DNA of 11,722 nt from positions 1 through 11,722 of the IMG/VR virus record IMGVR_UViG_2671180606_000004; one strand, given 5' to 3'. The position numbers and the translations under genes are program-made. Position 1 is the stretch's first letter, and each line of letters opens with the position of its first letter. This document shows, piece after piece, positions 2,212 to 11,722 of this stretch. Origin of the DNA: a virus. Its lineage: Duplodnaviria > Heunggongvirae > Uroviricota > Caudoviricetes. The notes under the pieces were generated by a model that worked only from the letters and a program-made list of their open reading frames with translations, did no database searches and was not told where the DNA came from.

Positions 2212-2748
2212 TTACGCCAGTTGTACGGAAACGAACTCATCAGGGTCAGCCAGCAGCATCAGCGGTGCTGACTGAATCATGGTGAACTCACGCGCCGGAT
2301 CGCCGGTGGTCACCCAGTTTTTCGGGTAACGGGCAGAGGCGTTAATGCCTTCGCGCTGTGCGTCCGCATCCTGAATGCAGCCATAGGTGCGCAGACCGCG
2401 AGCCTGAGTGTTCCCCAGCACCATCGTGTTGTCCGGCAGGAAGTTCTTTTTGACGCCGTTTTCCACGTACTGTCCGGAATACACGACGATGGCCACATCG
2501 CCATACATTCCCTTACCCTGGCGACGCGCCTTACGCGTTAACCAGCCTTCTGCTTCCAGCCGTGCGATAGCCGTTCTGACGGTACTCATCCCCGCGCCAA
2601 TCTGGCGGGCAATGGTTTCAATTGATGGCCAGCACACACCTTCGTCATTACTGAAATCAGCCAGGCGGGCCATAATTGCCACGCTGGATAATTTCATGCC
2701 TGACGCAGCGCAACCATCCCATACATAGCCGGTTAATTTAGTGCTCAT
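2212..2748 (-). CDS. Chimeric ORF: N-terminal ~78 aa winged-helix/HTH domain (HTH_36-like, as in phage replication-initiator proteins) fused in frame to the C-terminal ~100 aa of lambda major capsid protein E (E-derived part about 2212..2511)
   Basis: Residues from about 81 (MYGDVAIVVYSGQYVENGVKKNFLPDNTMVLGNTQARGLRTYGCIQDADAQREGINASARYPKNWVTTGDPAREFTMIQSAPLMLLADPDEFVSVQLA) match the lambda gpE C-terminus as recalled. Residues 1-78 (…SSVAIMARLADFSNDEGVCWPSIETIARQIGAGMSTVRTAIARLEAEGWLTRKARRQ) resemble the N-terminal DNA-binding domain of phage replication initiators. Lambda gpE is 341 aa, so its N-terminal ~240 aa are missing. Confidence 0.8.
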   Translation of the reverse strand: MSTKLTGYVWDGCAASGMKLSSVAIMARLADFSNDEGVCWPSIETIARQIGAGMSTVRTAIARLEAEGWLTRKARRQGKGMYGDVAIVVYSGQYVENGVKKNFLPDNTMVLGNTQARGLRTYGCIQDADAQREGINASARYPKNWVTTGDPAREFTMIQSAPLMLLADPDEFVSVQLA

Positions 2749-5088: not shown

Positions 5089-5504
5089 TTTTTTCAGGTA
5101 ACTCGTCGGCATCGCAGAAACAACAACGCTCGATCATGTTGAAAGCCGATTCGTAGAACTGTTTTTGCTGAGTGTCGCTGAGACAGGAAAAGAGCGACGT
5201 TACGATGATTTTATTAATTGCATTATCAAGTTCTTTTTCATCAAAAGTTATTTGATTTTCCTTTTATGTATACGGGCTTAAAAGGATACCACCGAGCCTG
5301 AAGTGGTGAAAAGACAGGCACATAACAGCTAAGTATTTTCAACCAGAGAGAATCCTTAGCGTTGTGGTGAATGCGGCTCAGCGCACGCGGGTTAAGGTTG
5401 AGGCTGACAGTCGACCTTCTGTGGATACCCACCCGCCTGGTGTGCAACCTTCGCCAGGCACCGGGAGGCACCCGGCACCACAACTTTATGCTGTGTGTAG
5501 TCCT

Positions 5505-5552
5505 GGCGGTACCAGTTTGTACACTTGCTTCCGGCTGGTACCGCTCTTTTTA
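5505..5552 (+). terminator. Rho-independent terminator candidate: perfect 10-bp stem GCGGTACCAG/CTGGTACCGC, 19-nt loop, followed by TCTTTTTA
   Basis: Base pairing checked position by position (5506-5515 with 5535-5544); U-tract immediately 3' on the plus strand. Lies in an ORF-poor spacer upstream of the yfdP-like gene. Confidence 0.5.
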
Positions 5553-5688
5553 CAAAACAGAGAAGAGCATCACCGGACGACGGGCTCATAACCCAATCCA
5601 TCCGGGCGGCTGCCACCGCAGGTGTTCTTCTCTGTTTTGTGGAGAAACTAATCGGCCTTGCAGGGTCGATATGATGAGGAGCAACAAA

Positions 5689-7068: not shown

Positions 7069-7605
7069 ATGTCATTTATTAAAACTTTTTCCGGGAAGCA
7101 TTTTTATTATGACAGGATAAATAAAGACGACATCGTTATTAACGATATCGCGGTTTCCCTTTCAAATATCTGCCGCTTTGCAGGACACCTTTCACACTTC
7201 TACAGCGTCGCCCAACATGCGGTGCTTTGCAGCATGCTGGTACCGCAGGAATTTGCTTTTGAAGCATTAATGCATGATGCAACAGAAGCGTATTGCCAGG
7301 ACATCCCCGCACCACTGAAACGCCTCCTTCCTGACTATAAACGGATGGAAGAAAAAATAGACGCCGTAATCCGTGAGAAATACGGGTTACCTCAGGCTAT
7401 GAGCACGCCCGTGAAATATGCCGATCTCATCATGCTGGCAACCGAACGCCGCGATCTCGGGCTTGATGATGGCTCTTTCTGGCCTGTACTGGAAGGTATC
7501 CCGGCAACAGAGATGTTCAACGTGATTCCACTGGCACCGGGCCATGCCTATGGGATGTTTATGGAACGCTTCAACGAGTTATCGGAGTTACACAAATACG
7601 CATAA
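7069..7605 (+). CDS. yfdR: HD-domain phosphohydrolase (YfdR-like, 5'-deoxynucleotidase-type), 178 aa
   Basis: H…HD…D motif (AQHAVLCS…LMHDATEAYCQDIP…); start at ATG 7069 (MSFIKTFSGKHFYYD…) with GGAG Shine-Dalgarno, rather than track start 7042; size matches K-12 YfdR as recalled. Confidence 0.85.
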   Translation: MSFIKTFSGKHFYYDRINKDDIVINDIAVSLSNICRFAGHLSHFYSVAQHAVLCSMLVPQEFAFEALMHDATEAYCQDIPAPLKRLLPDYKRMEEKIDAVIREKYGLPQAMSTPVKYADLIMLATERRDLGLDDGSFWPVLEGIPATEMFNVIPLAPGHAYGMFMERFNELSELHKYA

Positions 7606-7616
7606 ATGTTTTCGAA

Positions 7617-7957
7617 ATGGAAGGGTTTCTTCGCGGGAAATGTGTACCGCGAGATCTGAAAGTGAATGAAACAGATGCTGAATACCTGGTACGTAAATTC
7701 GATGCGCTTGAAGCTAAATGTGCAGCACTGGAAAAAAAGTAATACCAGTGTCAGCTGAACTGCCGCCAGCAAATGAAAGTGTTCTGTTATTTGATGCTAA
7801 TGGAGAAGGCTGGCTGATTGGCTGGCGTTCTCTCTGGTACACATGGGGGCAAAAAGAAACCGGAGAATGGCAGTGGACATTCCAGGTCGGGGACCTTGAA
7901 AACGTCAATATCACTCACTGGGCAGTAATGCCGAAAGCACCGGAGACTAAGAAATGA
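7617..7957 (+). pseudogene. yfdS: YfdS-like gene split into two frames at an A7 tract: 7617..7742 (41 aa, stop TAA) and the -1 frame continuing to 7957; frameshift mutation, homopolymer sequencing error or programmed -1 frameshift
   Basis: Upstream frame MEGFLRGKCVPRDLKVNETDAEYLVRKFDALEAKCAALEKK ends at TAA directly after the heptamer A AAA AAG (7733..7739); the -1 frame continues VIPVSAELPPANESVLLFDANGEGWLIGW… to 7957. Combined length about 114 aa (K-12 YfdS is 120 aa as recalled). Confidence 0.6.
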
Positions 7958-8169
7958 GCGTGATAAAAACTCATACAGGAATTGTTATCACGCAAGACGG
8001 TGACAAGCGGATGAAATTACATTCTACTGAAATGTCCTGGGTTGCCGGACGTTGTGAATCCTACGACAAAAAGACTGGTTACCATTGGGGGGCGCCAAAC
8101 ATGCGTCGCCGTCTGCTCCTGGACAGAATCAGGCCAATTAAACAGGTAGCAACCAGAGAGCAAAATTAA
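7954..8169 (+). CDS. Small hypothetical prophage protein, 71 aa (yfdT position)
   Basis: ATGA stop-start overlap with the preceding gene; GGAG Shine-Dalgarno 8 nt upstream. Confidence 0.6.
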   Translation: MSVIKTHTGIVITQDGDKRMKLHSTEMSWVAGRCESYDKKTGYHWGAPNMRRRLLLDRIRPIKQVATREQN

Positions 8170-8231: not shown

Positions 8232-8456
8232 ATGAGCAACCGCTTCCTGACTGATGAAGAACTGATAGAGGCGACAGGGTCTTCCCAAAAGTCACTACAG
8301 AAAGAAGTCTTAACGCAGAATGGCATTTTTTTTATTGAACGCAGGGACGGTTCTGTAAAAACGACCTGGTTTCATATAAATCATCCCATTCATCGTTTGG
8401 CTCCACCAGCAGGTTTCTCGCCCACTCCGGGTATGAACTTTGATGCTATAGAGTGA
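8232..8456 (+). CDS. Putative excisionase / recombination directionality factor (small protein directly upstream of int), 74 aa
   Basis: ATG 8232 with GGAG Shine-Dalgarno (track start 8217 is GTG); stop 5 nt before int. Function inferred from position, size and N-terminal motif MSNRFLTDEELIEATG…; not similar to lambda Xis. Confidence 0.55.
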   Translation: MSNRFLTDEELIEATGSSQKSLQKEVLTQNGIFFIERRDGSVKTTWFHINHPIHRLAPPAGFSPTPGMNFDAIE

Positions 8457-9451: not shown

Positions 9452-9473
9452 TAAGTGCGCGTTAGCGCACTTA
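9452..9473. terminator. Perfect inverted repeat TAAGTGCGC-GTTA-GCGCACTTA between convergent int and the AT-rich operon; candidate bidirectional terminator
   Basis: 9-bp perfect stem with 4-nt loop in the 23-bp gap between convergent stops; the stop codon of the 265-aa gene lies in the 3' arm; T-rich flank on the plus side. Confidence 0.4.
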
Positions 9474-10268
9474 TTCAAATAGTTCAGGGAATACTAATTG
9501 TAGTGAATTCATGAATTTATCAATATCTTCAGGAGGTTCTTGCTCACGAAACCACTTGTCACACACTTCATTGACATAAATTTTCGCTTGTCCGACCTTC
9601 AAGGATTTATTCTCTCGTCCACTTTTATCAGCAGGGTTATAGTGCAAACTTAAAATAAAATTTCTAACCTTTACTTCTTTTCCCTTTTTTGAAACTATAT
9701 TGTAGTCAAAATAACATTCATCACCGGTAAACGCATTTGCTATGGGGCTCTTTTTAAAATGATATCGGCACTCATCAAGCCTATCAGAAATAGCCTTATA
9801 TTTTTCAAAATCACCAGAGCTAAGGTAGCTGAACCAATTTTTAAAGTAACTTAATGAATCAAGTTTCTGATGGTAAATAAAGAAACCTGCATGTTTCTCA
9901 TCAGAAATATATCTTGTTACTAACTGTAACATGCCTTCAAAGACACCATTATACGAATTCCCTCTTTTTGCTTCAGCGAGCCAAGTAAAGCTCTGATCAC
10001 GATCCTGAACTGTAATATCGACGGAACCATTAGATTTTGTTTGTTCAGATGCGTTGTACCCAACACCTTTGAGAAATAAAACCAGTAAATTAGTGATCTT
10101 ATCTTCATCATCTGAATAATATTTATCCGCAGTCTTCTCAATATGCTTAATTGCATTATTTATATCGGCATATAGACTTTGTACAAACACATCCTCATCG
10201 AATGGCTTCAAGTTTACCAGCGCGGCTAATTCGGCAGGTGTTATATTTTGAAGAAAATTATTTGACAT
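9471..10268 (-). CDS. Hypothetical protein, 265 aa, third gene of the AT-rich operon; possible PD-(D/E)xK nuclease-like core (…GSVDITVQD…FTWLAEAKRG…)
   Basis: Long ORF in a visibly AT-rich segment; ATG overlaps the stop of the upstream gene by 11 nt. The D…E-x-K spacing is the only motif recognised and is an inference. Confidence 0.7.
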   Translation of the reverse strand: MSNNFLQNITPAELAALVNLKPFDEDVFVQSLYADINNAIKHIEKTADKYYSDDEDKITNLLVLFLKGVGYNASEQTKSNGSVDITVQDRDQSFTWLAEAKRGNSYNGVFEGMLQLVTRYISDEKHAGFFIYHQKLDSLSYFKNWFSYLSSGDFEKYKAISDRLDECRYHFKKSPIANAFTGDECYFDYNIVSKKGKEVKVRNFILSLHYNPADKSGRENKSLKVGQAKIYVNEVCDKWFREQEPPEDIDKFMNSLQLVFPELFE

Positions 10269-10689
10269 TTAATATACAGTAAAAAGAAATGTTATTAACA
10301 TCGAAATCATCTATTTCGCGCCCAGACAATAAACTGATCGGAGAAATATCACAAATCAGAGCATTATAGTAGCATTCTGCTGAAATAGGGATTTCTTCAC
10401 CATCAAAATCATAATAGCAATAAGTTATATTAAATAATTTAGAATGTGCACCACAAAAATAACGGACTAACTTTAGCAAATCCGAGTCCGATTCACAGCC
10501 TGCCGCTTGCCTTAATACATTAATCGGGTAATAATTTTTATCATAATTATTTTGAATGAAATCCAAAACATTATTGAATAGAAAGATATCTTCTTCAGGA
10601 AAGATATCTTTCATTTCATCCAATAATATCCTTTGTTCAGACAAAAGCATCATTATGACCTTGATTCTATCATTTTCGTGAGATGACAT
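10258..10689 (-). CDS. Hypothetical protein, about 143 aa, middle gene of the AT-rich operon
   Basis: ORF overlapping both neighbours (about 20 nt upstream, 11 nt downstream), suggesting translational coupling; start taken at ATG 10689 (track start 10695 is TTG). No family recognised. Confidence 0.65.
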   Translation of the reverse strand: MSSHENDRIKVIMMLLSEQRILLDEMKDIFPEEDIFLFNNVLDFIQNNYDKNYYPINVLRQAAGCESDSDLLKLVRYFCGAHSKLFNITYCYYDFDGEEIPISAECYYNALICDISPISLLSGREIDDFDVNNISFYCILNVK

Positions 10690-11722
10690 TTTCAATTAAA
10701 CCATTTAATGAGATTGTATCTTCAGGAAAATCAACATAAAATTCGCCACAAAAATTATCATCCAACCAAGATTTCTTATTTGGATCTAGACCCAATTCTG
10801 TAAAGTCACCATTATTTCTGTAAAATCTTACGGCTACAGCACGTGGTGTATAAATATCATTTCTTTTCTTATTAGTAATCTCGACATCTCGAGCTTCATA
10901 TGTCGGATCTTTGCGGCCAATGACATTAGCATCACAACCTGTATTAGAACCAACATAAATTATCTGAACTGCTTTCCCGAACGATCTATCAGTAATAATG
11001 CTATTGATCACATTATAAAAATTCAATTGTTTGAAATGAATAGTATTATTAGTACTGATGAGCATATCAAAAAATTTATTACGCACCGATGCAAGCGCTT
11101 TTGCTGTCTCCCGTTTCCCTAAATTTTTTGGAAGACGATACTCGATCCTATTTTTATTATGGGGAACAAATACTGTTATAAATTGTTGCTGTGGGGTATA
11201 CGATAGTCCTAAACCGCGACTTCCCTTAATCTTAACACTATAAACATATGAGAAAATAAAAGCAAAGCCATCGCCAGTATCAATTAATTTAGTCAGATAA
11301 AGACCTTTGATATTGTTCCCAAGTGAATTACCATCATATAACTTTCTTGGATAAGAATTTTCATACCTTGAATCAGTTACACTTGTACTAAAAACATGTT
11401 GGATCACACTTTGGAAATTTGGGTCTTGTGTTTCGTCAATAGAATAATAGTGACTACCAGAGATTATTATTCTATCGATCATTTTCTCAAGTGAATTTAA
11501 TGTAGCATTAGGAAATGCAGCTGTTGGATTCTGTATAGATGCCTCGATTGCCTTCAAAACCGCATCCATTCCACCTTTAACAGGTGGAAATCCATACACA
11601 GTTGCTATCTGAGAAATAAATGAATATAGATTGGTCTGCTCAAGCGCAGTAATCAAATCAGATAATACTTGTTGACTATTGTTGGCAACAACAGGCGTAG
11701 CAAATGCGCTAGATGAATTCAT
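10670..11722 (-). CDS. Hypothetical protein, at least 350 aa, first gene of the AT-rich operon; the ATG coincides with the last 3 nt of the window, so the true start and promoter may lie beyond the window
   Basis: Uninterrupted 350-codon frame in an AT-rich segment; no Walker or other catalytic motif recognised by eye. Confidence 0.7.
   Translation of the reverse strand: MNSSSAFATPVVANNSQQVLSDLITALEQTNLYSFISQIATVYGFPPVKGGMDAVLKAIEASIQNPTAAFPNATLNSLEKMIDRIIISGSHYYSIDETQDPNFQSVIQHVFSTSVTDSRYENSYPRKLYDGNSLGNNIKGLYLTKLIDTGDGFAFIFSYVYSVKIKGSRGLGLSYTPQQQFITVFVPHNKNRIEYRLPKNLGKRETAKALASVRNKFFDMLISTNNTIHFKQLNFYNVINSIITDRSFGKAVQIIYVGSNTGCDANVIGRKDPTYEARDVEITNKKRNDIYTPRAVAVRFYRNNGDFTELGLDPNKKSWLDDNFCGEFYVDFPEDTISLNGLIENVISRK

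Follow-up and report, generated by a model that had tools for sequence, protein, structure and literature searches.

A recent one-base deletion very probably inactivated a prophage yfdS gene and left a fortuitous A_AAA_AAG heptamer before a stop codon

Does the A_AAA_AAG heptamer that ends a yfdS-like reading frame in this viral DNA direct a programmed -1 frameshift, or was the gene broken by the loss of one base? The question concerns one locus in a stretch of 11,722 nucleotides, which was analysed as a whole and is called the window hereafter. A previous reading made from the sequence alone had placed an ATG at 7617, the heptamer A AAA AAG at 7733..7739 and a TAA codon at 7740..7742, with a -1 shift joining the interrupted frame to the downstream one. 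All of these elements were found at these positions. That sequence-only reading likened the site to the recoding site of dnaX, and offered a one-base deletion or a homopolymer sequencing error as alternatives, towards which it leaned, no strong stimulatory hairpin having been seen by eye. The features of the locus are as follows.

7596..7957, plus strand: span homologous to yfdS (Eae/DUF551 family), 362 nt here versus 363 nt in relatives; probable pseudogene
7584..7587, plus strand: GGAG, the Shine-Dalgarno sequence for the start codon of the family, located 8 nt before 7596, conserved in all aligned sequences shown
7596..7604, plus strand: ATA CGC ATA, versus ATG CGC ATG in relatives, from alignments
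7617..7742, plus strand: zero-frame ORF of 41 aa ending in ALEKK and a stop; it begins at the first remaining ATG and encodes an N-terminal helical (coiled-coil-like) module
7617-7619, plus strand: first remaining ATG, without a Shine-Dalgarno sequence
7732..7738, plus strand: run of seven A (A7), site of the missing base; AAAACAAA in relatives, AAAAAAAA in one of them
7733..7739, plus strand: A_AAA_AAG heptamer in the -1 slippery phase X_XXY_YYZ, from a direct reading of the zero-frame codons
7740..7742, plus strand: TAA stop codon put in frame by the deletion, read from the sequence
7739..7957, plus strand: -1-frame continuation from VIPVSAELPP to PETKK, encoding the DUF551 domain (Pfam), with its stop codon at 7955-7957

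Starting from the ATG at 7617, the zero frame of the window ends with the codons GCA CTG GAA AAA AAG TAA. Past the heptamer, the -1 frame continues with GTA ATA CCA GTG (VIPVSAELPP) and runs to the stop codon at 7955-7957, the segment 7739..7957 being free of further lesions. Over this segment, the DNA is the same in the aligned A7 copies of the E. coli genomes E-ge-1 and F3, and differs at one site in the intact copy of AL.H8. When recomputed from the ATG at 7617, the conceptual -1 product has 113 amino acids, instead of the approximately 114 given earlier. Within the window, the heptamer is not enriched, since A_AAA_AAG was counted 3 times on both strands as compared to 4.24 ± 2.03 expected from shuffled sequences.

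The identification of the gene as yfdS-like was corroborated by profile searches and by gene order. The fused product matched phrog_583 (120 positions) from end to end, with an E value of 2.6e-76 (fused residues 1-112 versus profile positions 8-119). Residues 43-110 were assigned to the Pfam domain DUF551 with 22.3 bits, the cut-off being 22. Both matches require the frame to be conceptually repaired. By itself, the N-terminal module matched phrog_614 and phrog_14548. A search of solved structures returned no YfdS homolog; residues 29-56 of the intact protein showed a weak resemblance to designed coiled coils (E 0.08). The intact yfdS product is composed of a short helical N-terminal module and of a DUF551 domain, and the position of the break corresponds to the boundary between the two. 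DUF551 has been described as a portable C-terminal domain, which is also present in an Ea22 variant (Ea22 paper).

Immediately upstream of yfdS, the window encodes YfdQ (DUF2303) and the HD-domain protein YfdR, and the order yfdQ-yfdR-yfdS is usual for the family. Downstream are found a 71-aa phrog_1226 gene, a DUF4224 excisionase-like gene and a tyrosine integrase gene. K-12 differs in this region, as yfdT is located downstream of yfdS where the window has the phrog_1226 gene. In the matching genomes, the element adjoins tRNA-Ser/mtfA. The locus forms the early-left arm of a prophage of lambdoid type, with CPS-53, mEp460, SfV and the Stx2c phages as relatives; the phage records name the yfdS homolog 'Eae'. 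Within the YfdS/Eae family (CPS-53, mEp460, SfV, Stx phages), the fused frame of the window fits the family profile and occupies the usual position after yfdQ and yfdR; it departs from the family in that its frame is broken and its start codon is lost. As regards function, cells without yfdS show sensitivity to H2O2, and yfdQR in multicopy, with either yfdS or yfdT alongside, has an inhibitory effect on replication initiation (Noguchi & Katayama 2016).

The nucleotide comparison with K-12 and other homologs proposed in the sequence-only reading was run, and it showed that one base is missing in the window at the break. K-12 reads GGAAAACAAAATA at this position and most other relatives read GGAAAACAAAGTA. 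The codons of the relatives are GAA AAC AAA GTA, the last one being ATA in K-12, so that the run of A is split by a C (A4-C-A3). In the alignments, the coding sequence runs uninterrupted over 363 nt in AL.H8, GTEN_24, MLI104K1 and a K-12 derivative, and the window is exactly one base short at the break. With close relatives, this appears as a single-base gap within alignments that are otherwise 97-99% identical. When E. coli was searched in sensitive mode, 2,304 records matched; a sample spread over them had 58 full-length rows other than the A7 copy, and the extra base was present in 58/58. An uninterrupted yfdS of 363 nt is accordingly attributed to K-12 and to more than 2,000 other E. coli genomes. 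Among the matches listed, it was also present in 40/40 phage records, including mEp460, SfV, SfII, SfIV, Stx2c phages and cdtI. We then searched IMG/VR with a pattern permitting 5-11 bases between the conserved flanks, and the spacer was 8 nt long in 56/56 matches. Finally, the spacers of 148 matches in fetched loci were tallied: 145 read AAAACAAA, one was A8 and two were A7, these last being the E-ge-1 and F3 copies. An ATG-started protein of 120 aa is encoded by 139 of the 146 fetched loci, which were obtained largely with a C-containing pattern.

The single A8 sequence deserves a separate description. It belongs to one IMG/VR contig (L006), where the gene is intact and encodes a 120-aa protein containing ALEKKVIPV. 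Across yfdS, this contig is the nearest relative of the allele found in the window. A8 was found in no other contig of IMG/VR, and a synthetic query with A8 on these flanks matched none of the 5,426 complete E. coli genomes exactly. The earlier premise that orthologs carry A8 consequently stands for this closest relative, and fails for K-12 and nearly all others, which have the A4-C-A3 form.

The family as a whole was further examined for the selection acting on it. With 48 distinct alleles, pN/pS was 0.16 overall, 0.15 upstream of the site and 0.17 downstream. Because the values are alike on both sides of the site, the yfdS family is maintained as one reading frame, which is under purifying selection over its whole length. 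A conserved two-gene arrangement was found in none of the homologs examined (E. coli sample, listed phages, fetched loci).

The A7 allele itself was found in 6 of the 5,426 complete E. coli genomes, namely E-ge-1, F3, GPEC657, GPEC1352, GPEC1354 and GPEC1356. These six are all 100% identical over 449 nt. A megablast search with positions 7550-8000 matched 2,752 E. coli records, six of them at an identity of at least 99%, and the next-best matches among those listed were one base longer. The exact A7 string had no match in IMG/VR, in JGI metagenome contigs or in GTDB species representatives. The sources of the A7 copies in E-ge-1, F3 and the GPEC genomes comprise a pigeon isolate (China), a wastewater isolate (Panama) and, among the submitters, the GPEC chicken series. 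In E-ge-1 and F3, the PGAP/RefSeq annotation already labels the identical stretch as a 'frameshifted' hypothetical protein. Over 4.9 kb, only 1-3 mismatches separate the prophage arms of the window, E-ge-1 and F3, whereas the chromosomal flanks of E-ge-1 and F3 show 7 differences in 1.4 kb. Nearly identical prophage arms within more divergent chromosomal flanks indicate that the A7 allele is young and present in more than one background. As at least two chromosomal backgrounds carry it, the allele has persisted or spread; neutrality would allow for this, a benefit being possible as well.

A second lesion accompanies the missing base. The annotated start codon of the family is an ATG equivalent to position 7596, 21 nt upstream of 7617, and a second in-frame ATG follows at 7602. 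Both are ATA in the A7 allele. The loss is caused by three clustered G>A changes, which also modify the C-terminus of YfdR and its stop codon (TGA>TAA). The ATA...ATA haplotype is confined to the same six A7 genomes, the next best match being 95.3% identical, and the start-codon changes are fully linked to A7. Signs of decay extend beyond yfdS. On the minus strand of the window, the open reading frame 2212-2748 fuses the N-terminus of an HTH_36 replication gene with the final third of capsid protein E. Every right-arm match starts at 2513, which marks a large internal deletion in the prophage of the window. IS1 insertions are present in the E-ge-1 copy, where some genes are truncated. Independently of A7, premature stop codons were found in two other yfdS copies of the fetched loci.

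We conclude that a recent, lineage-specific deletion of one base very probably inactivates yfdS, an early-region gene of this lambdoid prophage. The one-base-deletion pseudogene offered as an alternative in the sequence-only reading is supported by the single base missing relative to every other homolog examined, by the confinement of A7 to six near-identical RefSeq prophage copies and the window, and by the RefSeq label 'frameshifted'. A single base deleted from GAA AAC AAA GTA A, or from its A8 form, accounts for the heptamer in phase, the TAA next to it (from G|TAA) and the seamless -1 join. The three are one event and not independent coincidences. The segment encoding DUF551 is undamaged; this counts against inactivation, yet is equally expected of a young lesion.

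Other explanations were weighed against this deletion. The other alternative raised earlier was a homopolymer error of sequencing or assembly, the true sequence being A8 and the gene intact. Under-calling of A8 as A7 is a typical long-read error, and the closest allele, that of L006, does have A8. Every sequenced copy of the haplotype reads A7, and A8 on these flanks is seen in no complete E. coli genome. However, the six genomes, from at least three independent submitters, and the window all agree on A7, and this agreement of independent assemblies makes an error unlikely. Moreover, a T8 run at 8326-8333, about 600 nt downstream, is called the same in E-ge-1, F3 and MLI104K1 and leaves its open reading frame intact. 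In a 50-kb housekeeping stretch of F3, 1/48 features is frameshifted, an accessory fimbrial usher. Finally, the start-codon substitutions of the haplotype cannot be homopolymer errors. Assembly agreement, the T8 call and the clean core region together argue for A7 as a real allele, and we consider a sequencing error improbable.

A programmed -1 frameshift of the dnaX/IS type would yield the 41-aa zero-frame product and the 113-aa trans-frame product in a set ratio. The phase of the heptamer fits such a site, as the upstream frame reads it as X_XXY_YYZ (GAA AAA AAG TAA) directly before its stop codon, and the -1 frame enters a recognisable domain. In reporters, AAAAAAG with stimulators gives 4-39% frameshifting (Sharma et al. 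2014). The dnaX site has the same heptamer in the same phase, and A_AAA_AAG is read by a single tRNA-Lys (Atkins et al. 2016). However, dnaX also has an upstream Shine-Dalgarno-like element and a downstream stem-loop, and yfdS has neither. The best pairing with the anti-Shine-Dalgarno 16S tail in the 25 nt upstream reached -2.4 kcal/mol, and no Shine-Dalgarno-like stimulator, which would be expected 6-17 nt upstream, was recognised there. Four windows around and after the heptamer were folded and compared with shuffled sequences. At the working distance of 5-9 nt, no downstream hairpin stood out from the shuffles: 7740-7800 folded at -9.3 kcal/mol (z +0.16), and 7743-7790 was no better than chance (z +1.01). 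A 101-nt fold gave z -1.93, its stability being owed to a hairpin about 60 nt from the heptamer. This hairpin, at about 7802-7832, is the only stable one and lies in coding sequence common to intact relatives. No Rfam frameshift element was detected in 7560-7960, either at the gathering threshold or at E values up to 10, the scan up to E 10 returning solely a chance match to mir-462 (E 0.22). Neither the shift site nor a two-frame arrangement is conserved, since the other homologs examined are single open reading frames with AAAACAAA or, in one case, A8. The clusters of conserved heptamers given by Sharma et al. 2014 (supplement) include neither yfdS nor DUF551. In addition, the A7 allele has lost the start codon served by the Shine-Dalgarno sequence. 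A further difference is that the shift shortens the dnaX product and would lengthen that of yfdS. The dnaX-like recoding considered in the sequence-only reading is unsupported, and we regard a programmed frameshift as extremely unlikely. The A_AAA_AAG of yfdS is a fortuitous by-product of the deletion and not a recoding signal.

Further readings were considered as well. In one of them, the deletion is a selected 'compensated indel', YfdS being cut to a trickle made by slippage so as to tune the dose of this partner of YfdQ and YfdR in replication initiation. Around the site, the slip product is the same as the intact protein of the A8 allele. The allele also occurs in more than one chromosomal background, and initiation is inhibited when yfdQRS is supplied in excess (Noguchi & Katayama 2016). 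Examples of 'savior' indels have been described in other systems (Atkins et al. 2016), and in pDEST17 the C-AAA-AAA restores the frame after one-base deletions with an efficiency of 25-60% (Belfield et al. 2007). Against it, the A7 copies show no sequence divergence, hence selection is undetectable; the allele is very rare, its start codon is lost too and the prophage copies are visibly decaying. We hold it to be very unlikely. The same small credit is given to a newly arisen, stimulator-free recoding site that would have spread for a low useful dose of YfdS together with the 41-aa peptide; if this were true, the A7 allele would show a programmed frameshift at its beginning. Alternatively, the tract may be a phase-variable contingency switch, toggling yfdS between A7 and A8 through slipped-strand mispairing. 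Intact A8 and broken A7 are indeed both seen in closely related alleles. However, the tract shows no length polymorphism, A7 being present in each of the seven copies of the haplotype (six genomes and the window), and nearly all homologs lack a homopolymer at the site. Besides, with seven or eight A the tract is short if it is to switch efficiently in E. coli with functional mismatch repair. This reading is extremely unlikely. Gene fission, lastly, would have the DUF551 frame translated alone from the ATG at 7718, or after re-initiation at the GTG at 7748, so that both modules are made. The break does fall exactly at the module boundary, and DUF551 is portable according to the Ea22 paper. One plasmid copy keeps the DUF551 part only, with homology from the junction onward, and reads AAACAAAG. 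However, the annotation of this plasmid fragment is, in turn, that of an incomplete pseudogene, the ATG at 7718 and the GTG at 7748 have no recognisable Shine-Dalgarno sequence, and the homologs examined offer no conserved two-gene arrangement. Fission is accordingly a highly doubtful reading, and the one-base deletion is retained in what follows.

The origin of the deletion is best described as a two-step history, which is likely and the most economical one for the aligned alleles. In a first step, the common AAAACAAA would have become AAAAAAAA through a C>A change (AAC>AAA, Asn>Lys), completing a run of eight A. In a second step, this A8 run would have dropped one A by replication slippage, giving A7. 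The C may instead have been lost directly, with no A8 intermediate. The order of events, that is the A8 intermediate and the loss of the start codon before or after the deletion, is suggested by the single A8 relative. A parallel is found in APC I1307K, where a substitution makes a slippage-prone A8 tract (literature). The likeness of this pre-mutation lies in the same presumed two-step route, a point change completing A8 and the run then losing a base; the difference is that the A8 intermediate of yfdS comes from one contig alone, its place in the order of events being set by parsimony. The allele series AAAACAAA, A8 and A7 makes a tidy natural example of a slippage-prone tract created by substitution and then collapsing.

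What may still be produced from the broken gene was considered next. Most ribosomes would stop at the TAA at 7740-7742 and release the 41-aa peptide corresponding to the helical N-terminal module. A small fraction would slip by -1 on the heptamer and yield the protein of the A8 allele (ALEKKVIPV). The stop codon that follows might raise slippage somewhat, as a slowly decoded stop codon in the A site may aid slippage in the P site (the 'shifty stop' idea). A_AAA_AAG is the most shift-prone heptamer known in E. coli. With such a heptamer in phase and directly followed by a stop codon, some trans-frame product is plausible. In a reporter, AAAAAAG without stimulators gave 0.291% of -1 frameshifting, as compared to 4.3% and 39% with the IS911 and IS3 stimulators, respectively (Sharma et al. 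2014, Table S3). The context of C-AAA-AAA in pDEST17 raises slippage to 25-60% (Belfield et al. 2007). By analogy with the stimulator-free reporter, a low-level compensatory leak of about 0.3% may be expected at the yfdS heptamer. Rare slippage of RNA polymerase on A7 is also possible and would likewise remake the A8-allele protein. The high-efficiency slippage of RNA polymerase described in the literature concerns runs of nine A or T, so that slippage of this kind should be minor on A7. The sequence comparisons gave no sign that the leak is selected or used. The 'pseudogene' label may overstate the loss of function of yfdS.

Comparable situations help to place this allele. It resembles the homopolymer-slippage pseudogenes of defective prophages that PGAP labels 'frameshifted', with a one-base indel relative to intact relatives, a decaying prophage and a RefSeq flag. 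Nothing essential sets it apart from these, apart from the leftover tract, which happens to be highly shift-prone. It also shares with the G-run mutants of herpes simplex thymidine kinase, and with the attB1 C-AAA-AAA of pDEST17, a homopolymer indel partly reversible by ribosomal slippage. In those cases, the rescue was shown by experiment, and for thymidine kinase it matters, whereas in yfdS it is deduced and would be near 0.3%.

The finding has little biological weight: it adds another case of gene decay to those of defective prophages. For sequence scanning, it carries a caution: one base lost from A-rich codons gives a heptamer, a stop codon and a -1 join together, and this trio is no evidence of programmed recoding unless it is conserved in homologs. 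Frameshifting without stimulators at A_AAA_AAG before a stop codon could also be studied on the A7 allele of yfdS, as a native test case. The junction peptide of the trans-frame product reads (K)KVIPVSAELPPANESVLLFDANGEGWLIGWR.

The A8 form of yfdS was found by sequence comparison in a single locus, L006, carried on an IMG/VR contig. Its gene is intact, with an Asn to Lys change, and it is the nearest relative of the yfdS allele in the window. It is the likely intermediate on the way to A7. Similarity to yfdS also identified a DUF551 gene fragment in L159, a plasmid locus. A heptamer scan of the window returned a second copy of the slippery sequence.

L006 1482-1506 (IMGVR_UViG_2713897196_000002): A8 yfdS allele
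L159 501-728 (plasmid pEND_Eco 123-2, NZ_CP126957.1): DUF551 gene fragment
Window 9684-9690, minus strand: second A_AAA_AAG, within the ORF at 9471-10268

In the plasmid fragment, annotated by PGAP as an incomplete pseudogene, the likeness to yfdS starts exactly at the A-rich junction, the upstream sequence being different. This suggests that the junction is a recombination or module boundary. In the window, the 13 nt at 7592-7604 hold a cluster of three G>A substitutions (CGC>CAC, TGC>TAC, TGA>TAA), all confined to the A7 haplotype. As a result, the C-terminus of YfdR becomes HKYA* instead of RKCA* and both upstream ATGs of yfdS are abolished. The clustering of the three changes suggests one event or a small recombination patch. 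Counted from the start codon at 10268, the second heptamer lies at offset 578, which by arithmetic puts it in slippery phase as well. Its host ORF is uninterrupted, showing that in-phase copies of A_AAA_AAG occur without consequence.

Further features were identified in the rest of the window.

2212-2748, minus strand: chimeric ORF from domain matches, with a junction near 2512/2513
5331-5680, plus strand: strongly structured stretch, from folding and an Rfam match
7954-8169, plus strand: phrog_1226 gene (71 aa), directly downstream of yfdS
9471-11722, minus strand: three consecutive hypothetical genes, with the integrase at one end and the tRNA-Ser attachment side at the other

The start codon of the phrog_1226 gene and the stop codon of yfdS overlap in the sequence ATGA. 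This gene occupies the position held by yfdT in K-12 and is therefore a mosaic replacement. The chimeric ORF joins HTH_36, a replication-protein N-terminus (residues 23-70), to major capsid protein E, of which it has the C-terminal third (residues 76-176). Every E. coli match to the right arm starts at position 2513, and no record spans the junction. Taken together, the fusion and the common start of the matches point to a large internal deletion, which would render the prophage defective.

The 5331-5680 stretch is probably a prophage sRNA wrongly annotated as a pseudogene. Folding of 5360-5680 gave -143.5 kcal/mol (z -5.46), a value equalled by 0 of 100 shuffles. Positions 5331-5553 match the whole Rfam STnc100 model (RF02076) with 46.5 bits (E 6.7e-9), slightly below its gathering score of 47. 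PGAP labels the equivalent region "frameshifted hypothetical protein" both in F3, an E. coli genome with an A7 prophage copy, and in MLI104K1, a relative with intact yfdS.

Finally, neither Pfam nor PADLOC gave a match for the three hypothetical genes, which encode 265, 145 and at least 350 aa. They look like cargo, in a location typical of moron or defence genes.
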